Source: Anaeroplasmataceae bacterium (lineage in GTDB: Bacteria > Bacillota_I > Bacilli_A > Acholeplasmatales > JAEDCM01). From it: 64,000 nucleotides of DNA. The stretch lies in the NCBI GenBank assembly GCA_016294165.1, contig JAEDCM010000003.1, forward strand, positions 15,703-79,702. The letters run 5' to 3'. Under the pieces are notes generated by a model. The model was not told where the DNA came from and did no database searches. It saw only the letters and a list, made by a program, of their open reading frames with translations. Positions 9,156 through 25,850 of the stretch are shown here, piece after piece. A program made the position numbers and the translations under genes. Position 1 is the stretch's first letter, and every line of letters starts with the position of its first letter.

Positions 9156-10673
9156 ATGCAACTTGATGTTTTATTGGTTACACAAACGAGTGTTTCTTTA
9201 GAAATAATCAATGATTATCCATATTATACAAATGGATTATATAATGTGTATTTAAATGATAAATTAGTTTTAAAAAATAGAAAAACTAATGTTTTTTCTT
9301 TGTATAAATTAAAACCAAATACAGATTATAAGATAAGTGTTAAATTTGATAATGAAGCCATTTCTACAAACTTTAAAACATTATATGAAGAGGTTTGCTT
9401 GAATGTTTTAGATTTTAATGCAAAAGCGGATGGTACTAAGGATGATACTTTAGCAATTCAAGCGGCGATCATGGCTTGTCCAAGAAATGGTCGAGTATTT
9501 ATTCCAAAAGGAAAATATTTAATAACATCGTTATTTTTACGTGATGATGTCAGTATTGAATTATCAAAAAATGCAGTTTTAATTGGAAATGTTAATCGTA
9601 ATGATTATCCAATATTACCAGGTTTAAAGAATAATTGTTACTTAGGAACATGGGAGGGGTCTCCGGATTTAGCTTTTACGAGCATTATTACGGGAATAAA
9701 TGTTAAAAATGTTTTGATTTATGGATTAGGAGTTATCGATTGTAATGCACAAAATGGAGATTGGTGGGTTAATCATCGAGAAATGCGCATTGCGAGAAGA
9801 CCTAATGGGATATTTTTAAACAATTGTGAAAATATTTCATTTCAAGGTATCACTGTAAAAAATACGCCATCATGGAACCAACACCCTTTTTTTAGTCGCA
9901 ATTTAAAATATATTGATATATCTTTATTAAGCCCTAAGAATTCCCCAACAACTGATGGAATTGATCCGGAAAGCTGTGATAATGTATTGATATGTGGAGT
10001 GAAGATTAGTGTTGGTGATGATTGTATTGCGATTAAGTCTGGTAAATTAGCAATGGCAAAAAAATTTAAAACACCTTCTAGTAATATTACAATTAGAAAT
10101 TCTTTGATGAAATATGGGCATGCTGGTGTGACCATTGGAAGTGAATTGTCTGGAGGCATTAATAACATAAATGTGAATAAATGCGTTTTTTATAAGACTG
10201 ATCGTGGATTAAGAATTAAGAGCCAAAGAGGTCGCGGAAAGGATGCAATTGTTAATAATGTTAAATTTGATAATATTGTTATGAATAATGTTTTATGCCC
10301 ATTAGTTATTAATATGATGTATAAGGCTGGTAGTGATAAGGGTAATGAGGAGCGTTGGAGTGGTGAAAAACAATCAGTGACATCCCTAACTCCAAGCCTT
10401 GGGACCTTTGAGTTTAATAATATAAAAGCAACCAATATTGAATGGGGTGCTGGTTATTTTTGGGGATTAAAAGAAAGCCCAATTAAAAAAATAATTATTA
10501 ATAATTCTAGTTTTGTGTTCAAAAACAAAGCTAGAGGGGGTATAATAGCCATGAGTCTAAAAAATAACTACTGTAAGAAACAGGGGTTAACGTTTATAAA
10601 TGTTAAAAATTATGAATTGAATAATGTCTATATTGATGGACAAAAGGGAGAAAAAATAATAGAGGTGAAATAA
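9156..10673 (+). CDS. Glycoside hydrolase family 28 (polygalacturonase/exo-poly-alpha-galacturonosidase), cytoplasmic
   Basis: LNVLDFNAKADGTKDDTLAIQAAI (pectate-lyase-superfamily N-terminus of the beta-helix), GDDCIAIKSG and RIK motifs of GH28; no signal peptide. Confidence 0.75.
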   Translation: MQLDVLLVTQTSVSLEIINDYPYYTNGLYNVYLNDKLVLKNRKTNVFSLYKLKPNTDYKISVKFDNEAISTNFKTLYEEVCLNVLDFNAKADGTKDDTLAIQAAIMACPRNGRVFIPKGKYLITSLFLRDDVSIELSKNAVLIGNVNRNDYPILPGLKNNCYLGTWEGSPDLAFTSIITGINVKNVLIYGLGVIDCNAQNGDWWVNHREMRIARRPNGIFLNNCENISFQGITVKNTPSWNQHPFFSRNLKYIDISLLSPKNSPTTDGIDPESCDNVLICGVKISVGDDCIAIKSGKLAMAKKFKTPSSNITIRNSLMKYGHAGVTIGSELSGGINNINVNKCVFYKTDRGLRIKSQRGRGKDAIVNNVKFDNIVMNNVLCPLVINMMYKAGSDKGNEERWSGEKQSVTSLTPSLGTFEFNNIKATNIEWGAGYFWGLKESPIKKIIINNSSFVFKNKARGGIIAMSLKNNYCKKQGLTFINVKNYELNNVYIDGQKGEKIIEVK

Positions 10674-12705: not shown

Positions 12706-13801
12706 AGCCTTTTTAAAAATATTAAAGTGTAATCTATTAGTAATTGTAATATACGTTGCTATTTTTTGTGCGATTGCTGTTTTAGCTTCAGGAGATAATA
12801 ATAGTGGATATTCAGAGGTTTCTGTTGATGTGGCAGTTGTTGATTATGATAATTCTCTAGCATCAAAGGAAATTGTTAAGTTTTTAGATGAAAAAGCTAA
12901 TATCAAGGATATTGAAAATATTGATGATGCCTTATATTTAGGAGGTATTAGAGTTTATATTGAAATACCTGAGGGCTTTGGTGAAAAGTTGTTTACGGAA
13001 GATAGAATAAATGTTTTATATGAAATAAGCGCTGCATCAACAAACGGAATGTATTTAGTTGAAAAGCTTAATGATTATATTAATAAGCTCGTGATAGCGC
13101 ATAATGGTGGAGTTAGTGAGGATCAAGTTTTTGATGTTGTAAATGCATCATTAGAGAACGAAGCTAAGCCGGTAGTCATCGCCAAGGATAGTAGCCTATT
13201 AAGTGATGCAAAATATTATATGAATTATTTATCATATATCCTTACCGCAGTTATTACTACAATCATTTCAACAGTAATGCTTTCTTTTGGATCTAAGGAT
13301 GTCAGAAGAAGAAATGATATATCGCCAGTAAATATCTCAAAATTTAATTTAATTTTATTTGGTTTAAACCTATTATTTAGTTTTGTATTATTAGGTATAA
13401 TGTTGATGGTATGCGGTTTTATGTATAATTGGGTAGTGTTTAAGGGCACAGGATTATTGTTTATATTAAATAGTGTTATCTATGTTGCGTTCATTGTTAG
13501 TGTTGGATATTTAATTGGTATTGCTTGCAAGAAAAAACAAGTTTCATCTGCCGTTATAAACATTGTTTCATTAGCACCATCATTTCTATGTGGAGTATTC
13601 GTCCCACAAGAGCTTTTAAATATTCCGATTAGTAAAGCATTAGCTCCATATTATTATGTAAGAGCTAATGAATTGATTTACAAGACTGGTGAAGTTAATC
13701 AGGATGTTATTAATTGTTTTATTTTCCAAATTGTATCGACAATAGTTGTTCTTGGAGTTTGTTTGATTATTGTTAGGAAGAATCGAAAAAGCGAAAACTA
13801 A
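12692..13801 (+). CDS. ABC-2 family transporter permease (second subunit)
   Basis: 369 aa with the same topology as the preceding permease; coupled start. Confidence 0.65.
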   Translation: MSLYKAFLKILKCNLLVIVIYVAIFCAIAVLASGDNNSGYSEVSVDVAVVDYDNSLASKEIVKFLDEKANIKDIENIDDALYLGGIRVYIEIPEGFGEKLFTEDRINVLYEISAASTNGMYLVEKLNDYINKLVIAHNGGVSEDQVFDVVNASLENEAKPVVIAKDSSLLSDAKYYMNYLSYILTAVITTIISTVMLSFGSKDVRRRNDISPVNISKFNLILFGLNLLFSFVLLGIMLMVCGFMYNWVVFKGTGLLFILNSVIYVAFIVSVGYLIGIACKKKQVSSAVINIVSLAPSFLCGVFVPQELLNIPISKALAPYYYVRANELIYKTGEVNQDVINCFIFQIVSTIVVLGVCLIIVRKNRKSEN

Positions 13802-13944
13802 TTAAAAAAATTCTCTTATTTTTGACCTTAATATTGAAGGAATAGATGTATTTATAAGGTTTATAGCTGAATAAAAAAGAGGAATATAAACTAGTACCAT
13901 TAGATTAATTACTTTAAATCTAAGATATTAGGAATATTCCTTTT

Positions 13945-16608
13945 TTATTTTGTAAAAATATTTTGTATATTTTTAAATACCATTTTTGCTTCAGATGCGA
14001 TTGATTCATCATCACTTTCTAGTAATGTTAATTTTAGTTTAGTTTCTCCGTTTTCATAAGATATATAAATCGAAGAATTCCTATAAATATATAAAGAGGC
14101 TTCTCTTGTGAAACCAACTTGTTGTAAAAAAATTACTAAACCTTCTGTGGTTCCATATTCTACGTATTCATACCAATCATTTTTAAGATGTTCAATTTTT
14201 TTTATTTTTTTGTATTGGCTTGAGAATTTGTGAAAATAATTAGAAAACTTAAAGAGAATAATACGCTCAATTTCTTTTAAAGTATCATTGATGAGTTTAT
14301 TACGATGAAGTTTGGAATCATTATATGGTACATCTTTATACCATGGAAATGGTTCAATTTCTTTTTCTTCTTTAGTTTTGGCAAATCTTAGTGTCATTTC
14401 ATTTTTAGGGTTACTGTAGTAAGAGATTGAATCGTTTATTATTTCATTTATTGTCAATCCATATAGCCATTTATTTAGTGCAACCGCATGTCTCTTAATT
14501 ATAGGATGTTCTCCATAATAATTAATATTACCAGCTAATGATTTATCATATTTATCCCAATTAAAAATATAACATAATTGTTCTAAAAAATTTACTATAT
14601 CGTCATATCTTGTATCTGAATGTAGAGATGGATATTCTAAACCTTTTTCTATAGCGTTATTAAGTCTAATAACTTGATCTAAAGATGTGTTTATATCATC
14701 ATCAATATGTTCTTTAAATGATGAAAATTGCTCATTAATTTCATTTCTAACATTACCTTGAAGATAAGTACTAAACTCATTAGTAATCAAGGTATCTTTA
14801 TTATCTATAATATCTTTTAATAAAATTAACGTGTATCTTCTGACTATATCAAATTCTCCAGTTGGTATAAAATCTGGTCTATCAAAATTAACAATTCCTT
14901 CTTTTAATTTTTCAACAATAAAACACTTATATTCATCTTTTAAAGAAGAAGTAACAGATAGTTTTTGTTTTGCTATTTTTTTCTGAATTAGATCTTGGAA
15001 AGTATTTATTTGAGAAGAATCATTTATAACTGCAAATACATTGCCATATAGATTGTACTTAATTCTTCCAACTCTACCTATTAAATTTTTAAATTCAACA
15101 GATGTAAAGTTTTTTTTCCCATTTTCATAACTTAATATAAATAAATTATCAGCTGGAAGATTAATTCCTTCAATTAATGTACTAGTACAAAATAATGTAT
15201 GGATAATATTATTTATATATAACTTTTCTATTTTCAATCTAACAGAAGTACTTAAATTACCTATGTGATAAGCTACACCTTTTTTTACTAAATCAGCCAA
15301 ATAAATAGATTGATGAATTTCTTTTTTTATATATTCAGATAACTCTATTAGTTCCTTGTATCCACGTTCATTTGGATTAATGTAATCCAAGTTTTTAGAG
15401 AATTCTAAAGCTAAATCTTGAACATCAGAAATTTTATTAGCATAAATAAGATTTTGGATATTATTATTTGAAAATATTGTTGATTTGATTAGTTGAAAAT
15501 AATCAATTTCCTCATTTAAAGTTATTAAATCAACAAAATTATTTGTGTATTGGTTGTAAAAACTAATAGTATTATTTGTTTTATTGATAATATATTGTAC
15601 TTGATTAACCGGTGAATAAACAGTGTGAATATTGTTACTGATATATTCTGATTTTAGGTTTTTATTAGATATTAAATTAAGATATATTTCAGGATTTGGT
15701 ATATTTGGTGAAGCAAAATAAATATGAGCATCAGGATTTAAATCTAATGACATATTTATTACTTTATAGTAAAATGAACTTCTAATGTCTGTATCGGAAA
15801 TTTTATGAGCTTCATCTATAAATAAATCATGAATAATTGAAGATTTTTGCATCAATAAATATAATAATCTTTCTGGGGTTAAAATAAATACATAATTACT
15901 TTTTTCATTTACTATTGGAGTGCTAGCTGAAGTAATCACTTTATAGTTATACTCGTGCAAGTAATCTCCAAAATCATCAATTGCAGTCCTATATATATCA
16001 TTAATTAATGATTTACTTGGGACTATAATTGCATAGTTCTTTTTAATACCCTTTAGGATTTCATTTTTTATTTTAACAAGCATAATAAATGTTTTACCTA
16101 AGGAAGTTTTTCCAGAATAACTAAAGTATTTATGATTTAATGAATCATAAATTTGTTTTTGATTTATGAAGAAATACTTATTATTTTCATTAGGTATTTT
16201 TAATACTTCTTTTTGCAATTCATCAAAAATTTTATCTTTTAAATTTAAGTGTTTATAGTCCGGAAGTTTGTTAGCTATTCCTTGATAATTGCCTAAGTTA
16301 GATAAAATATTTCCAACAATATTTCTAACATCTTTATTGTCAAAATACTGATTTAGGGTTAATATTGCAATTTCTTGTCCCCATTGGCGATATAAGTCTT
16401 CATTTTTCACATATGAAGCTTTTGATAGAATATCAGCAAATTGCAATGCATGTAATGGATTATATTGTTCATGTTCATTTTGTAATTTTAAAGTGTCGAT
16501 TAAATTATTATAAATTATTCTTTCATATATAGTAATTAGATAATCGTTTTTTTCTAAATTATCATATAAAGTTTCTCTGATACTTTTTGCCATATTTTTA
16601 TTCTCCAA
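13945..16608 (-). CDS. DEAH-type superfamily-2 helicase, HamB-like (candidate Hachiman-type defence helicase)
   Basis: Motif I SGKTSLGKTF, motif II LFIDEAHKIS (DEAH), motif VI IGRVGRIKYN; 887 aa with about 370-aa non-helicase C-terminal extension; very AT-rich; translationally coupled to the upstream 434-aa gene. Confidence 0.55.
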   Translation of the reverse strand: MENKNMAKSIRETLYDNLEKNDYLITIYERIIYNNLIDTLKLQNEHEQYNPLHALQFADILSKASYVKNEDLYRQWGQEIAILTLNQYFDNKDVRNIVGNILSNLGNYQGIANKLPDYKHLNLKDKIFDELQKEVLKIPNENNKYFFINQKQIYDSLNHKYFSYSGKTSLGKTFIMLVKIKNEILKGIKKNYAIIVPSKSLINDIYRTAIDDFGDYLHEYNYKVITSASTPIVNEKSNYVFILTPERLLYLLMQKSSIIHDLFIDEAHKISDTDIRSSFYYKVINMSLDLNPDAHIYFASPNIPNPEIYLNLISNKNLKSEYISNNIHTVYSPVNQVQYIINKTNNTISFYNQYTNNFVDLITLNEEIDYFQLIKSTIFSNNNIQNLIYANKISDVQDLALEFSKNLDYINPNERGYKELIELSEYIKKEIHQSIYLADLVKKGVAYHIGNLSTSVRLKIEKLYINNIIHTLFCTSTLIEGINLPADNLFILSYENGKKNFTSVEFKNLIGRVGRIKYNLYGNVFAVINDSSQINTFQDLIQKKIAKQKLSVTSSLKDEYKCFIVEKLKEGIVNFDRPDFIPTGEFDIVRRYTLILLKDIIDNKDTLITNEFSTYLQGNVRNEINEQFSSFKEHIDDDINTSLDQVIRLNNAIEKGLEYPSLHSDTRYDDIVNFLEQLCYIFNWDKYDKSLAGNINYYGEHPIIKRHAVALNKWLYGLTINEIINDSISYYSNPKNEMTLRFAKTKEEKEIEPFPWYKDVPYNDSKLHRNKLINDTLKEIERIILFKFSNYFHKFSSQYKKIKKIEHLKNDWYEYVEYGTTEGLVIFLQQVGFTREASLYIYRNSSIYISYENGETKLKLTLLESDDESIASEAKMVFKNIQNIFTK

Positions 16609-17902
16609 ACATTAGTTTTGTATACAACTCAGAAGTAGTATCATCAATGCTATTTAATGGTAGAAGATAAATATAAAAAGAATAATTATTTAAATTCAAA
16701 TCAATAATTTTTTTCTCAATACATTCTTTTGCAACTTTAAAATCATGTTCATATTGTTCTTTAAATTCTTTCATAATATTAGGTTTAGAAATATCTAATT
16801 TAAAAGTATATCCTATAAAAACTCCAAATGCATTTGGCCCTCTTAATGGACGATCAGTTAAATCTTCTGGTTTAGGTAAAAAAATACTTTTAATATCAAC
16901 ACCTTCAGGAAGGGTATAATCTAAACATTCTTCAGATAATAAATTTATTTCTTTATGAGAATTATTTTTTATTTTTATCACTTTCTCAAATGCTCTATCT
17001 ATTGCCTCTTTTATATTATTTAGTGCACAGGAGGATCCAAAAACTATATCAAATTGAGGCTCACTATTGATGATTGGTAATCTGTGTATATGAATTCCAT
17101 CTGAATATGAATGGACATTAATATCATCTAGTTGTATTTTACTCATTATTTTAGGAGCATTTAATGAAGCTTCTAAAAAAATATACAATAGCATCTCACT
17201 TAATTGTTTTGCTTTATCACCAATTGACATTCTTTTTAATACTTTTTGTAGTGATTCTATAGCAATTAAGTCATTTATTTTGTTGTTTTTAGCTTTAATA
17301 GTAACATAATTTTTAATGTTATCATTTATTAATTTAAACATATCTTCTTGATTGAATTTAAATGCAGAAGAATCAAAATTTAGTATATATATAGATATTT
17401 TTTGGTTTTTATTAGGTGCAAATGTGTATTGATTTTTCAGATAAAATGTTTTGTTGAATTCATCTTTTTTAACTGAGACATCTAGTATTTCTTTTTTCTT
17501 TGTAATTCTTTTTTGAGAAGCAATATTTCTTAGAACATTAGATAAATCAGCGGATAATTTATTTACTATATCATTAGTAGTTTTTTCCTTTCTTAATCCA
17601 AGCGCAGAGCCTAACTCTATTAATCTATTCTCATTAATATGTTCTGTTAAATAGATTTCAACCTTTTTATTATTAATATTTATTAGATTTTTAGCATCCG
17701 CAGCAGATAAAGGATTATTGTCAAAATATCTATTTAGAGTATTTTTATCCCATTGAAGAACAGGGATTGATGGGTCGTTCTTGTCTACAACATAATTAAA
17801 AAAATCTTTTATGAATTCTCCTTGCCCTAATTCTGGAATAAAATGATATAATAATAAAATTAAATTTTTAAATTCTTCTTGATGTTTAGTCATTATATTC
17901 AC
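16598..17902 (-). CDS. Hypothetical protein, partner of the helicase (possible HamA/DUF1837-like effector)
   Basis: 434 aa, no recognisable ATPase motifs, 11-nt overlap with the downstream helicase start, AAGAAGGTGAA RBS; role assigned only from gene context. Confidence 0.3.
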   Translation of the reverse strand: MNIMTKHQEEFKNLILLLYHFIPELGQGEFIKDFFNYVVDKNDPSIPVLQWDKNTLNRYFDNNPLSAADAKNLININNKKVEIYLTEHINENRLIELGSALGLRKEKTTNDIVNKLSADLSNVLRNIASQKRITKKKEILDVSVKKDEFNKTFYLKNQYTFAPNKNQKISIYILNFDSSAFKFNQEDMFKLINDNIKNYVTIKAKNNKINDLIAIESLQKVLKRMSIGDKAKQLSEMLLYIFLEASLNAPKIMSKIQLDDINVHSYSDGIHIHRLPIINSEPQFDIVFGSSCALNNIKEAIDRAFEKVIKIKNNSHKEINLLSEECLDYTLPEGVDIKSIFLPKPEDLTDRPLRGPNAFGVFIGYTFKLDISKPNIMKEFKEQYEHDFKVAKECIEKKIIDLNLNNYSFYIYLLPLNSIDDTTSELYTKLMFGE

Positions 17903-18184
17903 CTTCTTTTTAACTTACTGTAGCTTACGAACACTTACTAACGCTTTCAGTTGCATTTGTAGATTTATTGATTTATAAGTGTTATAATTTATTTGAAAAG
18001 GAAATTATTTTGTATATTTATTTAGATTATACCAATTTTTTCTAAAATCCTCAATTGGTCATTTATTTAAATAAAAGAATAATTATCTTTTTATAAAAAT
18101 TAGGCTTTGGTGGGCTAAAAAAACACCAGAATTTAATACTTGCAATATCCTTAGGAGAACCGCGCGGTGTAATGAACCGTTTGA

Positions 18185-18248
18185 GACGGGCGGAAAGAAA
18201 AACATATTAAATTATGTTAAGTCTTTCTGCTCGTCTTTTTGTTTTTTT
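18185..18248 (+). terminator. Strong intrinsic terminator ending a non-coding element upstream of the sigma-like gene
   Basis: 13-bp stem gacgggcggaaag/ctttctgctcgtc (two G-U pairs) enclosing an internally palindromic loop, followed by tttttgttttttt. Confidence 0.7.
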
Positions 18249-18304
18249 AAGGATGTGCAGGTACTTTCTAGGGATTTGCATTTATTAATTCGAAAGGATT
18301 ATAA

Positions 18305-18739
18305 ATGAAAAAAGACACAAAAATTGTTAAGCTACAAGTTTCTAGGAAGAACTATGAATTTATTGAAGTAAAAGATGATAATGAATTGAAATTAATTGAA
18401 GAACTGAATCGTGATTTTTATAGATTCGAAAAAAGTCAAGAAAGATTAAGAAGAAAATCTGTTTCTTGCGATAATCTTTTAGAAGATTATAAATATGAGA
18501 TTCCATCTATTGAAAATGACCCATTTGAAAAAGTGGTAATTGTAAAAAGGAATAAAGCTTTGTATGATGCTATAAATTCTTTAGAAGAAATAGAAAAAAA
18601 GATTTTTATTTTAAGAGCAAGTGATGAAATGTCTTTTAATTCTATTGCTAATAGTGTTAATTTGTCAAAGACCGCTGTAATAAAAAAATATAATGCTATT
18701 ATTTTGAAACTTCATTATTTATTAAAAGATTATATGTAA
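18305..18739 (+). CDS. Sigma-70 region-4-like HTH protein (minimal alternative sigma / TcdR-UviA-like or Tn916 Orf7-like regulator)
   Basis: C-terminal LYDAINSLEEIEKKIFILRASDEMSFNSIANSVNLSKTAVIKKYNAIILKL fits the sigma-70 region 4.2 HTH pattern; 144 aa. Confidence 0.5.
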   Translation: MKKDTKIVKLQVSRKNYEFIEVKDDNELKLIEELNRDFYRFEKSQERLRRKSVSCDNLLEDYKYEIPSIENDPFEKVVIVKRNKALYDAINSLEEIEKKIFILRASDEMSFNSIANSVNLSKTAVIKKYNAIILKLHYLLKDYM

Positions 18740-18755
18740 TCTACTTCTATACATA

Positions 18756-18788
18756 GGCAAATTTTGAGGATTATTTGCCTTTTTTTTA
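18756..18788 (+). terminator. Intrinsic terminator after the sigma-like gene
   Basis: ggcaaat/atttgcc hairpin followed by a T9 run. Confidence 0.7.
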
Positions 18789-19125
18789 TTCTTTGGTGTT
18801 CAAAATGCCATCTAAGTGTCCAGTACTATTGTAGGGATAAGCTTACACGTCCTTTGATAACTGTTATGGCGCCTAACATTTATCAAATTTGGACAATCCA
18901 TAAGGAGGTGGTTCCTATGATTTAGGTTGTGATCAAAAAGGTAGTAAATATTAAATATAGAGTACTAATTGGTAGTAAAAAAAAGAAAGAAATAGTGCTA
19001 CAAAAATGATCGAAATTTTAAAAAACTTGATATTGATTAGGGCTGCGTATGATTAATTATGCATTATAGCACTAAGGTTAAGCTCTTACCAAAATAGAGT
19101 AAAAAAATTATAAGGAGAATAAAAA

Positions 19126-19821
19126 ATGAAAGTAACATTAAAAGAAAAAGCGCAAGCAAATTTATGGAAATTAAGAAAGGCAAATGAATCAAATTTCACC
19201 GAATATTACATTTTAGAGGCAGATAATAATGTAATTGATGAGGGAACAGAGCTAAATGAGGAATTTTATGAAAAGATTAATTATAATGATGAAGCGATTA
19301 TGGGTTTAACCATCAATAATGAGGTAACAGCTTTACCAAATGCAAAAGCCTTACAAGCTCAAATTGTATTATTACCAAATGGAGAAATCTGGGTAGTACC
19401 ACCACAAAATAAAGGAGTTAAATACAAACTAGAAGAAAGAGAAGTTTTATTTGAGGGTAATAGAACCTTAACCACAAATACAACACTAACATGTAGTAAG
19501 TCATTATATGGAAGTGGATTTAAAAGTATGATGATTGAGGTTTATAAAGATAATACAACATACGAAGATTGTACAGATTATATCTATGAAGGAAACACAA
19601 GACATTATGTTGAGATCATTGATGAAACGATAAATGATGGAGATTCATTTTATAATGAGTTTAGTTTTATCACAAAAATTGATAATGAATCAATTGAATG
19701 GATTAGCGGAAATGTAAATGGTAATAATGTAGTGCTTAGGGCGTATAAGAGAATTTTTTCAACAAATACAGTTGTTAGTGTATCAAATGGTTTCCATATA
19801 AGAATTACGGGGGTTAAATAA
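19126..19821 (+). CDS. Hypothetical protein, first gene of the Rhs toxin operon
   Basis: 231 aa, no signal peptide or TM; stop overlaps the start of the next gene (TAATG). Confidence 0.5.
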   Translation: MKVTLKEKAQANLWKLRKANESNFTEYYILEADNNVIDEGTELNEEFYEKINYNDEAIMGLTINNEVTALPNAKALQAQIVLLPNGEIWVVPPQNKGVKYKLEEREVLFEGNRTLTTNTTLTCSKSLYGSGFKSMMIEVYKDNTTYEDCTDYIYEGNTRHYVEIIDETINDGDSFYNEFSFITKIDNESIEWISGNVNGNNVVLRAYKRIFSTNTVVSVSNGFHIRITGVK

Positions 19822-20078
19822 TGGAATACATTGAGCTGTTGTCAATAATTTTTATAATACTAGGAATAATATTAGGATTATTTAAAAAAAGAAAATCATT
19901 GGCGTTAGTAAAAGTATCTAAAAAAATGCTAGAACTAATAGATGAAGTAAAGGATACAGAAAAAAGTAAAAAAGAAAAAGAGGAATATGTTCTAACTAGT
20001 CTAATAGAATATACGCTTGAGGAAAGTATCACATATATAGAAGAAGAGGGAAAAGAAAATGAAGAGAAAGATGTTTAA
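19821..20078 (+). CDS. Small single-pass membrane protein with acidic C-terminus (possible holin-like/release or accessory factor)
   Basis: 85 aa; IELLSIIFIILGIILGLF TM helix then KKRK and a Glu/Lys-rich tail; coupled on both sides. Confidence 0.4.
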   Translation: MEYIELLSIIFIILGIILGLFKKRKSLALVKVSKKMLELIDEVKDTEKSKKEKEEYVLTSLIEYTLEESITYIEEEGKENEEKDV

Positions 20079-23000
20079 AATTGATGATAATTTAAATGTA
20101 GAGTTATCAAAAGGTTTATTAAATCTAAAGCTTAATGATATCAGCACAGCTGGTATCATTCCTTTAGAAATAGCCCATGTTTATAATAAAAATGTTAATA
20201 GAGGATATGGGTATAATTTTAATATGAGCACCGATATTACAATTAAAGATAATGAAATAACGTATCCTGATGGTCATAAAGAAGAGATTAAAGAGAGCAT
20301 TTACTATATCAAAGAAGGGAAAAGGACATATGAAAAAGAAGATGGAAGCAAACTTACAAAAGAAGATTTAACAGAGGTAAGTAATGGATATAAATATTTA
20401 GATTATGATGCTTATATAGAATTTAAAACAGATGAAGGATATATATTAAGCCAGTCAACTCATGAGAAATTTGAGGAAAGAAATGAAGAATATGTGGCAC
20501 AGGAATTAAGGTGTAGTGAGTTAAGACAAGCATTAGAGGAACTTAAATATAATCGTGTAGAGATGACAAAATATTTAGATTTAGAAGTTCCAGAAGGATA
20601 TACTTCATATGAATCAGTTGGAGAAGAATTATATAATGCAAGAGATGATTATTACAATTTTACAAATAAGGAAAAGGTAGAAAATACTTATGGACTAACT
20701 AATGATAAAGAAGCGTCTTTTCCAAGCAACTTTAATATTGATAGTATAACGTTTGAAAACACTGATGAATCTGTGCAATACTTGCCAAAAAATCCTATTA
20801 GTAAGCGATTATTTGAATTAAATCATATATCGAGTTATGGGTTTCCTAACATTCCGCTTAAATTTAATTCTTTTGAAGATTATCAAAAAGAAATGTATGG
20901 TTTAAATGATTTATATAACTATTATTTAGGAGAGATTGAAAGTAGAATTGGTGAAAGTAATCAAATGATTGATAAGGTTTCACATGATAATTTAACTGAA
21001 TATTATAATAAGATAATTGATGAGATTAATTATAAAATATCTTATTATGAGAAGGAATTAAATAAACAAGAAGAAATTTTTCAAGAGATGCAAAAAACAT
21101 TTCCTCAAAAATATTTATACAAGGATGGAAGTATTGTATATGGGTTTAATGTTTTTGGACAGTTGGCGGTTATTTTTGATAAATATGGAAATCAAGTATT
21201 GATTAAATATGATAAAAAAAATAATATTGATGAGATTATTGAAAAGAATAACACAATTAGATTTATATATAAGAACTCTTTACTTTCAAGTATTAAGGAT
21301 GATCACTTAAATGAGATTACATATGAATATGATACTAATGGAAAATTATTAACAATCACAAAAAAGGGAATAAAATCCCAATTGAGCTATAGTAATGAAA
21401 AATTAACTGGAATTGTTCATAATAAAAGAAGGTATAGTATTGGATATAATGGGAATGGAATGGTTTCTAATATTACAAATTTAAGAACAAGTAATGATAG
21501 TTTATCATTTAGTTATGAGCTTACTGAAACAGATAATATTTCAAGTGTAAAAGTAATTAGAAATAAAACAAATGATGAATATATTTATCTATTTAATACT
21601 AAAGAGTGTTATTGTGAATATCAATTAAGAAATAATAGGATGCATAATTTAATTACCCATGAGAATAAAGATAATAAATATGAGCTAGAGGTAAAGGCAA
21701 ATAAGGATTCAAATATTATTTATAGCGGAGTTAATCTAAGTGGAAATGTTAATGTTTGGAATTTAAAGAGAAGAGATTATGTATTAATATGTGATATTAC
21801 AATGGAAAGTGCAGCGATAATTAATAATCAAATTAAGACAAGTATGTTTGAATATATTGAAAATGATTCTAATAAGAGCTTATTTACTGTTGTGGTTGAA
21901 TTGAAATATGATAATGAGACAATTACTTATAAGAATTCATTTGAAAGTGGTATTGGAAGAAAACAGGTAATCATTCCAATTTCTTTAAAAGAAAATTATT
22001 TGAAGGAAGTAGTTATTCCAAATGAATTTGTAATTAGCAGAAATATTCATAGAATAGGATCTTATAAAGTAAATAGTGTTAAGCTTTTTGAATCAAACTA
22101 TAGCTATAAAGAATATGATGAACATAAAAATGTAATTTATGTTTATAATAGTGAAGAAAAGCTACCAATGCTTGAAGGTAACGATTATGCATATATTAGT
22201 AGTGATATTAATTATACATATGATGATTATAATAGATTATTAAAGGAAGAAAAAATAATTCATTATAAATATTTAGAAAGAAAAGAGGATAAAAGTGAGG
22301 TTAGAGAATACTTTTATAATAGTTTAGGAAGGTTAGCTAGAAAAGAGTATAAGGATATAGTTACTAAATATACATATGATGAATATGGACAAGTTATTAA
22401 AGAAGAGATGTATCATTTTAGTAATCCAGTAAATAAGTATTGTAAGGAATATGTTTATAATGAATCAGGATTATTAATTAAAGAAATCATTGATGGTAAT
22501 GAAAATAATATAAGCTATAATAAGGATAGTAATCTTATAGAAAAAGATGATGATTATGTTTATGGATATGATAAATATAAAAATCTAATTGGAATTACAA
22601 GTTCAAAAAACAGTAATAATTATAACTTACAAGAGATAAAAAATGGCCTTATCATGAGCAAATCTAGTCCAACAAATAAATATAATTATACATATGATAG
22701 TATGGATAGATTAATTAAGGTTGAAGGAGAAAATGTATTAATTGAATATCAATATCATGATGAAGAGTTTAAAGAAATTATTAATTGTAATTCTTTAAAA
22801 ATCATTAATATTAAAGACAAATATGATAAGTTATTAAGCACTGAATATTTAAAGGATGATATAAGAATTGGATTTGTTAATTATACATATGAAGATGATT
22901 TATTATTAAGTGTGTATGAAGAAAATAATGATTATGAAAATCAAACTTCTTATGAATATTTTGATAAAAAATTAAAAAGATTATCAAAAAATGATTATCA

Positions 23001-24744
23001 AATCACTTACAAAAATGATTATTATGATAATATAGTTGAAATTAATTATGAATTTGAAGATGATTCATTGAGTTATGAATATGAATATGAAGAGGAATTA
23101 TTAAAAAGAATTAGTGTCTTAGATTTTAATAATGAAATAGCATATGATGATTTAAAAAGAATCAAAAAGGAAACACTTAATAATATCACAAAGGAATATT
23201 ATTATGAATCAACTTTAGGAAATGTCACAAATAGGATCATTGGAATCAAGGAAGTAATTAATAATAGTGTTTCATATAAAAAATATAAGTATGATGATTT
23301 AGGAAATATTATTGAGATTAATGATGGGAATAAAGTAAGCTATGTATATGATAGTCTAGGACAATTAATAAGAGAAAACAATAAGAATCTAAATAAGACG
23401 GTTATTTATGAATATGATAATAATGGTAATATAATATTAGAATATAAATATGATTATACATTAGATGATAATCTTGAAAATGAAGAGATAAAGACGTATA
23501 ATTATGATAAAGATAAGCTTATTAAATGTAATGATTTAGAGTTTATTTATGATGATTTAGGAAATATTATTAGTTATGATAATAATAGTTTAGAATATGA
23601 AAATAATCATTTAAGTAGATTTAATAATATAAGCTTTAAATATGATTTAAGTGGAAATAGGATCAAAAAGATTATTGGGAATAAGGAACATAGATATGTA
23701 TTAGAAGATGATAAGATTCTAAAAGAAATTATTAGAACTTATACAAATTTTAATGGACAAGCATATTCTAAAGATGAAATATTATATTTATATGGTCATA
23801 ATGGAATAATTGGATTTAAATATAATGAAGAAGAGTATCATTATAATAGAAATATCCTTGGAGATATTACTGAGATTTACAAGGGAAATGAATTAGTAGG
23901 AAAGTATGAATATGATGCATGGGGAAAACATAGTGTAGTATTAGATATAAATGGAATAGCAAGTATTAATCCATTTAGATATCGAGGATATTATTATGAT
24001 GAAGAGAGTGGACTTTATTGGTTACTTTCACGTTACTATGATCCTAGTATTGGTAGATTCATAAGTCCAGATAGTGTGAATTATTTAGATTCTCAAAATA
24101 TCAATGGATTGAATTTATATTCTTACTGTGGAAACGATCCAATAAATCGATTCGATCCAACAGGTCATTCTTGGGAATCGTTCTGGAATGGTGTTGGAGA
24201 TTGGTTTAGCTATCATTTGAAGGAAGTTGTGATTGGAACAGCATTTATTGTCGGTGGAGCATTGGTGACAGCTTTTACAGCAGGAGCTGGAGTAGGATTT
24301 ATGGCCGCATTTGGAAGTGCTTTGTTGTCATCCACAATTCAAGTTGGAATAAGTGTTGGTACAAGTGTTTTAGTCGGAGGTCTCGTATCTGTAGCAAATG
24401 GAGGCGGTTTCTTTGACAATGTCGGTGATAATATAGCCAGTGCATATATGTGGGGTGGTATTTTCTCTGGTGGTGCGCAAATTCTTGGTGGTGGTTTTAG
24501 AATTGCTGCTAATAAAGGAGTAACTACAGGTAGAGCAGGCGGAATCAAACTTGGTAATTCCGGTGTGAAAATATTGTCTCCAGATAAAAATAATTGGGCC
24601 AAAGCAGGCGGAACATTAATTAAATTCGGTAATGGCTTTAGAATCGATACAGGTGCTATGTGGGGATTGCATATGCACATACTAAGTTCTGGACATCTTC
24701 CAATTGGTGCTGTTATTGCAGGATTTATTGGAACAGAGTATTAA
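20059..24744 (+). CDS. Rhs/YD-repeat polymorphic toxin with C-terminal glycine-zipper hydrophobic toxin domain
   Basis: Many YD-repeat units (YxYDxxGNxI pattern throughout). Rhs shell start motif at residue about 20 (LNLKLNDISTAGIIPLEIAHVYN...GYGYNF). Conserved Rhs core end RYYDPSIGRFISPDS and DPxG motif (NRFDPTGH) at 24154..24165. A 192-aa Gly-rich hydrophobic CT follows (24166..24741). Confidence 0.85.
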   Translation: MKRKMFKIDDNLNVELSKGLLNLKLNDISTAGIIPLEIAHVYNKNVNRGYGYNFNMSTDITIKDNEITYPDGHKEEIKESIYYIKEGKRTYEKEDGSKLTKEDLTEVSNGYKYLDYDAYIEFKTDEGYILSQSTHEKFEERNEEYVAQELRCSELRQALEELKYNRVEMTKYLDLEVPEGYTSYESVGEELYNARDDYYNFTNKEKVENTYGLTNDKEASFPSNFNIDSITFENTDESVQYLPKNPISKRLFELNHISSYGFPNIPLKFNSFEDYQKEMYGLNDLYNYYLGEIESRIGESNQMIDKVSHDNLTEYYNKIIDEINYKISYYEKELNKQEEIFQEMQKTFPQKYLYKDGSIVYGFNVFGQLAVIFDKYGNQVLIKYDKKNNIDEIIEKNNTIRFIYKNSLLSSIKDDHLNEITYEYDTNGKLLTITKKGIKSQLSYSNEKLTGIVHNKRRYSIGYNGNGMVSNITNLRTSNDSLSFSYELTETDNISSVKVIRNKTNDEYIYLFNTKECYCEYQLRNNRMHNLITHENKDNKYELEVKANKDSNIIYSGVNLSGNVNVWNLKRRDYVLICDITMESAAIINNQIKTSMFEYIENDSNKSLFTVVVELKYDNETITYKNSFESGIGRKQVIIPISLKENYLKEVVIPNEFVISRNIHRIGSYKVNSVKLFESNYSYKEYDEHKNVIYVYNSEEKLPMLEGNDYAYISSDINYTYDDYNRLLKEEKIIHYKYLERKEDKSEVREYFYNSLGRLARKEYKDIVTKYTYDEYGQVIKEEMYHFSNPVNKYCKEYVYNESGLLIKEIIDGNENNISYNKDSNLIEKDDDYVYGYDKYKNLIGITSSKNSNNYNLQEIKNGLIMSKSSPTNKYNYTYDSMDRLIKVEGENVLIEYQYHDEEFKEIINCNSLKIINIKDKYDKLLSTEYLKDDIRIGFVNYTYEDDLLLSVYEENNDYENQTSYEYFDKKLKRLSKNDYQITYKNDYYDNIVEINYEFEDDSLSYEYEYEEELLKRISVLDFNNEIAYDDLKRIKKETLNNITKEYYYESTLGNVTNRIIGIKEVINNSVSYKKYKYDDLGNIIEINDGNKVSYVYDSLGQLIRENNKNLNKTVIYEYDNNGNIILEYKYDYTLDDNLENEEIKTYNYDKDKLIKCNDLEFIYDDLGNIISYDNNSLEYENNHLSRFNNISFKYDLSGNRIKKIIGNKEHRYVLEDDKILKEIIRTYTNFNGQAYSKDEILYLYGHNGIIGFKYNEEEYHYNRNILGDITEIYKGNELVGKYEYDAWGKHSVVLDINGIASINPFRYRGYYYDEESGLYWLLSRYYDPSIGRFISPDSVNYLDSQNINGLNLYSYCGNDPINRFDPTGHSWESFWNGVGDWFSYHLKEVVIGTAFIVGGALVTAFTAGAGVGFMAAFGSALLSSTIQVGISVGTSVLVGGLVSVANGGGFFDNVGDNIASAYMWGGIFSGGAQILGGGFRIAANKGVTTGRAGGIKLGNSGVKILSPDKNNWAKAGGTLIKFGNGFRIDTGAMWGLHMHILSSGHLPIGAVIAGFIGTEY

Positions 24745-24761
24745 TTCAGGAGGGAATATAA

Positions 24762-25169
24762 ATGGAAAAACAAATTATGATAAAACACTCATATAGTGAT
24801 AGAACTTTAAAAATTAAAAATACTATTAGCTATTTAGAACTATTTGTTGATTCATTGAGTGATAAAATTGTTATTAACTGTTGCTTGAATGTAAATCAAT
24901 CTAAAATTATTGATGAAATAATGCGTTTGAAGCATTCGGGTATTGTTGATAGCTTTAATTTAGAAATAGACAAAAAACATTATAACTTTAATATTACTAC
25001 TAGTATGGATAATGTTATACACATTCTTAGTCTTATAGAAAATTATGAACTAAATGTTATGATTTATTGTAATGGTATAAAAATGTTTATTAATGATAAT
25101 GACGGTGATTTTATCATAATTAATTCAAACCATGGAAAATATAGTATGATTAAAAACAAAAATAATTAA
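24762..25169 (+). CDS. Putative cognate immunity protein (hypothetical, soluble)
   Basis: 135-aa ORF with GGAGG RBS 17 nt after the toxin stop; role inferred from position only. Confidence 0.35.
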   Translation: MEKQIMIKHSYSDRTLKIKNTISYLELFVDSLSDKIVINCCLNVNQSKIIDEIMRLKHSGIVDSFNLEIDKKHYNFNITTSMDNVIHILSLIENYELNVMIYCNGIKMFINDNDGDFIIINSNHGKYSMIKNKNN

Positions 25170-25203
25170 CACAAATTTGCAAATTACTTTCACAAGCAAA
25201 ACT

Positions 25204-25242
25204 AGGTGAGTTTACCTTTGGGTAAGCTTACCTTTTCTTTTT
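25204..25242 (+). terminator. Intrinsic terminator closing the toxin/immunity operon
   Basis: 12-nt perfect palindrome ggtaagcttacc (plus the overlapping aggtgag/cttacct pairing) followed by ttttcttttt. Confidence 0.6.
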
Positions 25243-25482
25243 ATAAAATGAGATTTAAATGATAACATATATATATATTAATTTACATGTTTTTTGAGGA
25301 AATTATGATATAACTTTAGTACAATTATTTGAAAAAAATAGAAAGTAGTGGTGAAGATAATTTGGGATTTAAAAGTTATTGTTGAAACATTGGGACAACA
25401 AGTTTTAGAGTTGATCAATTAAACTATAAAAATGAGTGTTAATTAAGATATTTAAATGAATATGCTATCAAAACTTAAATAT

Positions 25483-25512
25483 TTGACTAGAGAAGAATTC
25501 ACTTAGTATTAT
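25483..25512 (+). promoter_or_regulatory. Sigma-A-type promoter of the pheST leader
   Basis: TTGACT - 18 nt - TATTAT. Confidence 0.6.
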
Positions 25513-25518
25513 TTATCT

Positions 25519-25850
25519 AATCATTGAAATTAAGATAAAGTATATCCATTGAATTACCTGAAAAAGTAAAAGTTAGTTAGCTAATTAAAAAAATTTCTTG
25601 ATTATGATTTATAAAAGGAATATAATATCAAATAGAGATTGTGAAAAAGAAGTAGTAACTACAAGATGCAAGGCTTTAGAGAGAACCTGTCACCGGCTGA
25701 AAGCAGGTTTAGATACGCTAGTAGTGAATTCACCTTTGGAGTCTAATCGTATTCCTGCGTTAAAGGATTTGAGGGCTAGATTTATTCTAGAACTAAGGTG
25801 GTACCGCGTATTTTACGTCCTTAGATTTATTCTAAGGATTTTTTTTATTA
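25519..25850 (+). promoter_or_regulatory. T-box riboswitch leader (tRNA-Phe-responsive) of pheST
   Basis: AGAGA box (tagagagaacc), conserved T-box sequence aactaaggtggtaccgcg at 25791..25808, followed by terminator hairpin ccttaga/tctaagg plus a T8 run at about 25817..25845. Confidence 0.8.

Follow-up and report, generated by a model that had tools for sequence, protein, structure and literature searches.

What is the pair of minus-strand genes that interrupts a 64,000-nucleotide stretch of contig JAEDCM010000003.1 from an Anaeroplasmataceae bacterium, and what does the first of its two proteins do? An earlier reading of this stretch (hereafter the window, to whose full length all coordinates refer), made from the letters alone, had proposed a Hachiman (HamA-HamB) anti-phage system, and we refer to it as the original prediction. 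Our analysis supports it. Both proteins match the corresponding Hachiman models and their genes are neighbours in related genomes, and we observed none of the three outcomes set beforehand as able to overturn the proposal: a first protein without a DUF1837 or nuclease-like fold, a helicase grouping with housekeeping enzymes, or homologues that are not co-localised elsewhere. By family membership and operon structure, the locus is a two-gene type I Hachiman (hamA-hamB) system. As to what its HamA does, the explanation that we consider likely as a whole is a type I Hachiman system on a variable island, with a role in anti-phage defence assigned by analogy with its relatives, in which the DUF1837 domain of HamA would serve as a scaffold and an additional N-terminal domain as the output or an adaptor.

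The gene pair and its family

The first protein, HamA, gave 87.7 bits against the Pfam family PF08878 (HamA/DUF1837; gathering cutoff, 25) in a match that spans the whole profile (positions 2-230 of 230), and it also matched nine PADLOC HamA models, the best being HamA1 (E = 1.3e-49). As had been expected, we found no ATPase motifs in it. When its AlphaFold model (predicted local distance difference test, pLDDT, 74.8) was searched against the PDB with Foldseek, the sole significant match was 8zue_A, the HamA of an E. coli Hachiman system (E = 2.8e-5). At the sequence level, a profile of its relatives (17 HamAs) matched 9wh1_A (E = 3.6e-25), a chain deposited as 'Anti-bacteriophage protein A/HamA C-terminal domain-containing protein'.

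The second protein, HamB, contains the helicase strings quoted in the original prediction: GKTSLGKTF at residue 161, FIDEAH at 258, and GRVGR at 506. Its motif residues are the Walker A lysine K167, the DEAH box at 260-263, and motif VI at 506-510 (residues are numbered here on a HamA of 431 aa and a HamB of 882 aa; in the longest open reading frames (ORFs) the numbers rise by 3 and 5, respectively). HamB carries the Pfam domains DEAD, ResIII, and Helicase_C, and aligned end to end with the PADLOC model HamB1 PDLC00190 (861.5 bits, E = 2.1e-259; residues 5-886 of the 887-aa ORF against profile positions 3-865 of 866), whereas it reached only 49-62 bits against the NCBIfam Hel308-type equivalogs, whose cutoffs are 887-1216. 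HamB therefore groups with HamB proteins and not with housekeeping Ski2/Hel308 helicases. Its closest PDB sequence was 9wh1_B (E = 2.2e-58, residues 123-844).

Co-localisation was equally consistent. A HamB-like helicase gene lies directly downstream of hamA in 9 of 9 loci of the close family (L001-L005 and L090-L093; L001 duplicates the window's own locus, and four of the contigs end inside hamB), in 78 of 79 non-redundant distant loci from species-representative genomes, where the single exception is a contig end, and in Listeria-type loci. The locus thus combines a DUF1837 HamA, a HamB-specific helicase match, and adjacent co-oriented genes, which are the marks of Hachiman type I. Type II has a third component, HamC (DUF3223); here there are two co-oriented genes, and no HamC match was found among the neighbours tested.

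Both minus-strand ORFs have the coordinates originally given, 16598..17902 (434 aa, GTG start) and 13945..16608 (887 aa, TTG start). However, the 11-nt overlap read between them is an artefact of taking the longest ORFs, and the likely starts leave a gap of 4 nt. An in-frame ATG at 16593 has GGAG 9 nt upstream, the hamA stop codon occupies 16598-16600, and the junction between the two genes reads ...GGAGAATAAAAATATG; similarly, GAAGGTG stands upstream of an ATG at 17893. A separate gene call on the identical public contig gave a HamA of 431 aa, a HamB of 882 aa, and a 4-nt gap, a public protein (P0001) is identical to the 431-aa HamA, and every close HamA homologue is 431-441 aa long. Translation of hamA and hamB therefore probably begins at these two ATG codons, and the genes probably do not overlap. 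Despite this, the coupling of the two genes that had been proposed is tight, because the ribosome-binding site of hamB lies within the last codons of hamA. The operon is limited to these two genes: hamB ends 132 bp inside the left edge of the island and 143 bp from an ABC-2 permease gene that converges on it, and upstream of hamA lies a divergently oriented gene.

HamA and its two domains

Alignment A1 compares 17 HamAs. At the catalytic position its canonical short members have GESK, whereas the window HamA has GSSC, as have all but one of its six close homologues, the exception being P0007 with GSSS. An hmmalign survey of relatives also placed the GSSC of the window HamA at the canonical GESK position. 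The ExK pair is essential in the HamAs of ECOR31 (E138/K140; PMC12278908), DEC14B (E150/K152; PMC11914072), and S. thermophilus (E147/K149; PMC13064477). Other polar residues of the domain are retained, E233, E241, and K248 being invariant and D265 being present throughout the close family and in 64 of the 79 relatives; the D-to-E spacing is 20 residues in the S. thermophilus HamA versus 22 in the window HamA. In the AlphaFold model, E241 sits on a helix, D265 starts one strand, and residues 286-289 lie on the next strand, a predicted layout that we read as the one expected of a PD-(D/E)xK site. The ratios of nonsynonymous to synonymous substitution (dN/dS) were 0.18-0.43 for the N-terminal domain of HamA, 0.13-0.30 for DUF1837, and 0.07-0.12 for HamB, at a dS of about 1-1.5 for most pairs. 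Judged by these ratios, both HamA domains are under purifying selection, and the system appears to be functional rather than decaying.

The original prediction had cautioned that the first protein is larger than a canonical HamA and might belong to a divergent effector-helicase pairing. This caution was well placed: the roughly 140 extra residues form a separate N-terminal domain, which is joined to a DUF1837 domain without ExK. In the model the N-terminal domain is all-helical, with no strand of three or more residues, and structure comparison revealed no enzyme fold, no nuclease fold, and no likeness to anti-sigma domains, so far as these comparisons reach. The domain looks non-enzymatic in the model. 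A Foldseek search against viral models returned three uncharacterised Siphoviridae proteins (TM-score 0.62-0.68).

We found no convincing relative of the N-terminal domain outside its own family when 1.84 billion representative proteins were searched exhaustively with a HMMER profile, a search that returned its own cluster, two fragments, and one marginal stand-alone protein of 195 aa (E = 6e-4). No detectable homology connected it to the N-terminal domain of about 190-220 aa found in Listeria/Clostridia-type long HamAs (hhalign probability, 0.4%). Searches for further family members were likewise negative, both with peptide patterns from the domain in JGI metagenome contigs and IMG/VR and in 185,579 species-representative genomes, where the best match had 38% identity and covered DUF1837 only; phage and plasmid records gave matches to DUF1837 and none to the N-terminal domain. 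Two of the sequences encountered deserve mention in their own right. The stand-alone protein (P0031; L009, 213-800) aligns over the whole N-terminal domain at its marginal E-value and shares with it the motifs FF..V.D and L..Y....LS..DA..I, on a short contig with no visible context. A second protein, P0025 (242 aa; L100, an 879-bp contig), reads as HamA residues 1-63 continued in the same frame by the final ~180 residues of HamB; it represents either an internal deletion that arose naturally in the system or a chimera made during assembly.

The survey of distant relatives took the 80 best loci by similarity to the window HamA, and is thus biased to its own neighbourhood. After duplicates and 5'-truncated genes had been dropped, 45 loci had a long HamA (at least 430 aa) without ExK, 22 a short HamA (at most 330 aa) without ExK, and 7 a short HamA with GESK. 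In this neighbourhood, therefore, HamAs as a rule lack ExK, and the loss is shared by HamAs that have no N-terminal extension. Neither the N-terminal domain of the window HamA nor the sigma-like gene next to hamA (see below) was present in any of the 80 surveyed loci. As a side observation, 12 of the 22 short ExK-less hamA genes follow, at a distance of 6-74 nt and in the same orientation, a type I restriction gene, hsdR (HSDR_N, SWI2_SNF2, T1R_D3; L014, L016, L017, L020, L027, L036, L046, L051, L052, L064, L074, and L076), an arrangement that may join type I restriction-modification and ExK-less Hachiman in one operon. The other recurrent neighbours of distant hamAB genes were DNA methyltransferases and GmrSD, with Shedu standing beside ExK-bearing HamAs.

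Type I systems have been divided according to their HamA. In type I-A, which makes up 86% of systems, HamA consists of DUF1837 only and has an intact active site; type I-B has an N-terminal Cap4 nuclease, type I-C an N-terminal peptidase, and type I-D an N-terminal domain of unidentified type 'X', and the PD-(D/E)xK residues are absent from types I-B, I-C, and I-D (PMC11914072). The window HamA differs from type I-A in having GSSC for GESK, though D265 is kept, and in its extra N-terminal domain of 141 residues. It lacks the Cap4-type nuclease domain of type I-B (AbpAB), and it has neither the peptidase domain of type I-C/trypsin-HamAB-MBL nor more than two genes in its operon. What it does have is an orphan N-terminal domain together with the absence of ExK. 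These are the two stated criteria of type I-D, and we have therefore filed it under that type, which is a bioinformatic catch-all with no characterised member.

The known systems resemble the window locus to different degrees. Type I-A systems (ECOR31, PDB 8VX9; DEC14B; S. thermophilus) are likewise two-gene hamA-hamB operons encoding a DUF1837 protein and a Ski2/Hel308-like DEAH helicase, and their HamB has an extra N-terminal helical region and intact motifs, as does the window HamB. By analogy, the sensing logic (DNA ends or damage, followed by ATP-driven activation) is presumably the same. However, the canonical I-A HamA is about 250-310 aa long and has a D...ExK DNase site, whereas the window HamA has SxC instead, plus about 140 residues at its N-terminus. 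Neither phmmer nor the 17-HamA family profile revealed, at E<=1, any similarity between the window HamA and the ECOR31 HamA (8VX9_A), which a search with a canonical short HamA likewise failed to reach at the E-value limits used; the 8VX9 HamB reached no more than E = 4.7e-8 against the window HamB.

The closest solved relative by sequence, through the matches of both proteins to 9wh1, is trypsin-HamAB-MBL (bioRxiv 10.1101/2025.09.03.673762), provided that this entry belongs to it. We infer from chain length and domain boundaries that 9wh1, 9whk, and 9whu are probably the trypsin-HamAB entries: chain A of 9wh1 has 528 aa and its DUF1837 aligns at about 242-524, where the preprint gives 236-528. 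In trypsin-HamA, DUF1837 has neither catalytic residues nor nuclease activity, and the protease activates a separate MBL nuclease (bioRxiv 10.1101/2025.09.03.673762). Both HamAs thus combine a DUF1837 without catalytic residues with an extra N-terminal domain; that of trypsin-HamA is a trypsin-like protease acting on the product of a third gene, whereas that of the window HamA is an orphan, small and all-helical, in an operon that has no third gene. The HamA of AbpAB (type I-B; E. coli K-12, PDB 8ZUE) is also similar in architecture to that of the window: a further domain is fused to its N-terminus, and its catalytically degenerate DUF1837 docks on HamB. There the DUF1837 is the HamB-docking scaffold and the fused Cap4 nuclease the output (PMC11914072), but AbpA's N-terminal domain is a Cap4-type PD-(D/E)xK nuclease with a mixed beta-sheet, whereas that of the window HamA is strand-free and has no nuclease fold.

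By analogy with the characterised systems, HamA and HamB would form a 1:1 complex in which the Ski2/Hel308-like HamB surveys DNA. The trigger would be free or damaged DNA ends arising during infection, as for ECOR31 and AbpAB, and ATP-driven movement (ratcheting) of HamB would then switch on the output of HamA. Within HamA, DUF1837 would be mainly a HamB-docking, regulated scaffold, as in Cap4-HamA/AbpA and trypsin-HamA, and the N-terminal domain would be the output or an adaptor module. We favour this reading because both characterised ExK-less HamAs use DUF1837 as a scaffold and the fused domain as the output.

The island, its control region, and the neighbouring genes

The gene pair belongs to a larger inserted unit, the features of which are collected in Table 1.

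Table 1. Features of the island and its borders (window coordinates)
Feature	Position	Strand	Description
Left 15-bp direct repeat CTAATTAAAAAAATT	13798..13812	+	Overlaps the ABC-2 permease stop codon; junction alignment A7
Variable island	13813..25595		11,783 bp, GC 0.253; hamAB, RNA, sigma-like gene, RHS cassette
hamB	13945..16593	-	882 aa, ATG at 16593; longest ORF from TTG at 16608; superfamily 2 (Ski2/Hel308-like) DEAH helicase
hamA	16598..17893	-	431 aa, ATG at 17893; longest ORF from GTG at 17902; orphan N-terminal domain plus DUF1837
HamA DUF1837 (PD-(D/E)xK-like) domain	16601..17470	-	E233, E241, K248, D265 kept
Codons for G286-S287-S288-C289	17027..17038	-	Canonical G-E-x-K catalytic position; Glu and Lys both replaced
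HamA N-terminal domain (residues 1-141)	17471..17893	-	Compact eight-helix predicted domain, then Lys-rich linker QKRITKKKE
Candidate hamAB promoter	18026..18054	-	TTGAGG, 17-nt spacer, TATAAT, extended -10 TG; consensus match
Conserved structured RNA, ~150-170 nt	18101..18272	+	Upstream of the sigma-like gene; alignments A4, A6
RNA P1 hairpin	18103-18116
RNA core	18126-18272		Long closing helix around two hairpins
Sigma-70 region-4-like protein	18305..18739	+	144 aa; divergent from hamA
Toxin cassette	19126..25169	+	231-aa protein, 85-aa holin-like membrane protein, 1561-aa RHS/YD-repeat toxin, 135-aa candidate immunity protein
Right 15-bp direct repeat CTAATTAAAAAAATT	25581..25595	+	Just upstream of the pheS T-box leader
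T-box of pheS	25632-25825

The island is horizontally acquired and strain-variable. The exact 15-mer at its borders has only these two copies in the 64-kb window, and in three contigs (L094, L095, and L096; flanks 98.9-99.4% identical), which we reached via contigs carrying an identical PheS, the site is empty: window position 13820 joins 25581, and one copy of the repeat is present, with one mismatch. In all three, the ABC-2 permease gene is followed directly by the pheS leader; in L094 the empty site lies at 9719-9741. No relatives came up in the genome collection when the flanking ABC-2 permease served as a probe for synteny. A fourth contig, L097 (97% identical), shares only the last ~59 nt of the island and carries at the same site (window ~25522) an IS3-type transposase (HTH_Tnp_1, HTH_21; L097 1-1448); L098 has the same breakpoint with almost no upstream sequence. 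The position upstream of pheS is therefore a variable hotspot. L097 also has a 35-aa ORF (VGIYCRLSLDD), which we take to resemble the N-terminus of a serine recombinase. Among the window ORFs screened with Pfam there was no integrase or transposase, those of the island included no recombinase, and the window contains no tRNA.

The original description of the surroundings was right in part. The pair is inserted between housekeeping blocks, although the insertion has three times the size of the pair itself, and it does have the ABC-2 transporter on one side and the RHS toxin cassette on the other. The stretch is indeed AT-rich, but this is not confined to the pair, with a GC content of 0.24 in hamAB and 0.253 in the island as against 0.295 and 0.319 in the flanks. 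The suggestion of a typical defence-island context, on the other hand, was rejected after PADLOC and Pfam scans of the neighbours: beyond generic ABC-ATPase similarity, those tested gave no PADLOC defence match except a marginal one to a Cas10 HD domain, in an HD-domain protein at 1258-2895 (E = 8e-4, 16 bits). The window is ordinary chromosome, with rsmH, yceD, an ABC-F protein, a GH28 glycosidase, the ABC-2 transporter, T-box-regulated pheST, and ilv/leu genes. The host belongs to the uncultured low-GC Bacilli: among named matches, its PheS came closest to that of an Acholeplasmatales MAG (78% identity), ahead of Anaeroplasmataceae (68%) and Thomasclavelia (66%).

Between hamA and the divergent sigma-like gene lies a compact control region. 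The candidate hamAB promoter was the top promoter-like site of our scan (10 of 12 matches, with the TG), is kept in related loci, and implies a 5' untranslated region (UTR) of about 125 nt. This UTR holds four tandem repeats of about 10 nt (17911-17950, minus strand) with the consensus GTAAGCGTTC and a 10-nt periodicity, directly upstream of the hamA ribosome-binding site; the L002 version of the repeat is GGAAGCGTTC. On this sequence pattern, the repeats may be a regulator binding site.

On the other side of the promoter, the region encodes a conserved structured RNA. Its minimum free energy is -59 kcal/mol, with a z-score of -7.5 on the plus strand versus -4.2 on the minus strand, and its larger hairpin (18185-18235) has 15 bp including two G-U pairs, followed by a U-run (to 18249). 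RNAalifold folded the seven sequences available with 57 pairs, 6 of them with compensatory double changes, a count that none of 500 shuffles reached and for which slid registers gave at most 1; paired cells amounted to 97.5% versus 41-51% in slid registers. As limits on these covariation figures, the sequences number only seven and are related to one another, and the alignment that was scored is also the one from which the structure was drawn. Relative to the window, the intergenic region has a nucleotide identity of 0.80-0.86, above that of hamA (0.70-0.76) and of the sigma-like gene (about 0.71), and the RNA core stays 79-94% identical in spite of a dS that is about 1 or higher for most pairs. 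The motif CUUUCU (18264-18269) is predicted to have two alternative partners, the 5' end of the core and the ribosome-binding site of the sigma gene (18292-18298). Given the hairpin with its U-run and this alternative pairing, the RNA is probably a cis-regulatory leader. It matched no Rfam family at the gathering score or at E<=10, was not found outside the island family by exact-pattern scans of metagenome and viral collections or by blastn against phage records, and its covariance model recovered only the known copies in 725 kb of sequence searched.

The sigma-like protein matched the Pfam family Sigma70_r4_2 (22.8 bits, below threshold) and the PHROG 'RNA polymerase sigma factor' (E = 1.9e-9); its best NCBIfam match was 'positive control sigma-like factor' (28.6 bits, below threshold). 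Across the close family, identity to the window was 74-88% for HamB, 59-73% for HamA, and 56-62% for the sigma-like gene, which is divergently adjacent to hamA in every close-family contig that reaches that far. When the homologous stretches were compared (window 18305-25169; L002 1-6498; L003 54-1452), a holin-type gene was found after the sigma-like gene in all three lineages, being the 85-aa membrane protein in the window, Phage_holin_6_1 in L002, and Phage_holin_5_2 in L003. An RHS toxin is also present in two of the three, and the L002 RHS-like protein is 34% identical to that of the window. The flank distal to hamB differs, with the ABC-2 transporter in the window, small ORFs and pyrG in L002, and a penicillin-binding protein in L003. 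In its gene order, the sigma/holin arrangement resembles sigma-controlled, holin-dependent toxin or lysis cassettes. The shared module could reflect shared descent or functional linkage; functional coupling of hamAB with its sigma/holin/RHS neighbours seems to us improbable. In the window, the RHS protein (20059-24744) has RHS_repeat and an Rhs_assc_core at residues 1285-1370; the ~190 aa that follow (residues ~1371-1561) form the C-terminal toxin region, whose hydrophobic character and richness in Gly and Ala suggest that it acts on membranes. For the 135-aa ORF downstream (24762-25169), no family match was obtained.

Competing explanations and what the system may mean

Several of our own observations weigh against a scaffold with a separate output. 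D265, E233, E241, and K248 are all kept, which leaves room for a residual or rearranged active site. The catalytic position was mapped by alignment to canonical GESK HamAs and by strand order in the model, not by direct alignment to 8VX9_A. There are 22 short HamAs among the distant relatives with neither ExK nor an N-terminal domain, so that an ExK-less DUF1837 can persist without a fused output domain, although the genes of 12 of them directly follow a type I hsdR; and, unlike trypsin-HamAB, the operon has no third gene. An alternative to which we assign an appreciable but clearly minor probability is accordingly a Hachiman system in which HamA is still a nuclease, with a rearranged site made up of D265, E233/E241, and K248 or another lysine, and in which the N-terminal domain does no more than tune sensing, DNA binding, or assembly. 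Catalytic residues are known to migrate in PD-(D/E)xK enzymes, and the conservation of the four residues, the purifying selection on DUF1837, the short ExK-less HamAs, and an N-terminal domain without enzyme fold would all suit such a protein. Yet the lost Glu and Lys are precisely the two residues that three characterised HamAs need for defence and nuclease activity, as mutating them has shown, and no compensating Lys or Glu column is evident in the 17-HamA alignment. Moreover, E233, E241, and K248 are also conserved in 9wh1_A, the chain inferred to be the nuclease-dead trypsin-HamA, and their conservation is therefore no sign of catalysis.

A different possibility is that the pair is wired to its neighbours, the N-terminal domain being an adaptor (for example, anti-sigma-like) for the sigma-like protein, so that the HamB trigger would release holin/RHS expression and lead to abortive lysis or toxin release. 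Every characterised ExK-less HamA drives another effector via its N-terminal domain, that of the window HamA and the sigma-like gene are both missing from all 80 distant loci, the sigma-like gene precedes holin-type genes of different families in three lineages, and hamA and the sigma leader share a compact, conserved back-to-back control region. We nevertheless hold this to be unlikely: the co-occurrence can be explained by shared descent in one small related group, the structure comparison found no anti-sigma likeness, the sigma-like assignment is below threshold, and an RHS toxin beside a defence system would also be expected of a generic variable island. That the locus is a decaying or non-functional Hachiman remnant with an inactivated nuclease appears very unlikely. 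The lost catalytic pair, the absence of the island from sister strains, and P0025, if it is a deletion derivative, would fit decay, but P0025 may be a chimera on its 879-bp contig, both ORFs are intact in every close-family locus spanned by a contig, in lineages at a dS of about 1-1.5, dN/dS is 0.07-0.43 for every domain, HamB motifs I, II, and VI are intact, and GSSC/GSSS is conserved across the family. As for a housekeeping Ski2/Hel308-type DNA-repair helicase with an accessory protein and no role in defence, the shared helicase core and the housekeeping genes that flank the island speak for it, but we give it almost no credence in view of the HamB1 and Hel308 scores reported above, a partner that is a DUF1837 protein, the absence of the pair from near-identical strains, and distant relatives that stand beside restriction-modification, Shedu, and GmrSD genes.

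With respect to annotation, the locus is routine, as existing PADLOC models call both genes and standard pipelines would label it Hachiman type I. It is also a clean example of the uncharacterised type I-D, in which ExK has disappeared, the N-terminal domain is all but without relatives and has no enzyme fold, and purifying selection acts on both parts. In the two ExK-less HamAs that have been studied, the output is a fused nuclease or protease; the small helical domain found here therefore implies a different one. There is a small chance that this domain represents a new kind of Hachiman output or adaptor, providing defence without the DUF1837 nuclease; in its strongest form, it would couple the damage sensing of HamB to the sigma-like factor, which has its own leader RNA, and so switch on the holin/RHS genes as a single 'sense and lyse' unit. 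The unannotated control region, with its back-to-back promoters, covariation-supported RNA, and sigma-like gene before holin and toxin genes, may merit a description of its own. Near-identical strains with and without the 11.8-kb island are available in public data, with base-exact junctions, and constitute natural isogenic comparators. Being small and made of two genes, the system also offers a manageable setting in which to study the function of a HamA that is not a nuclease.

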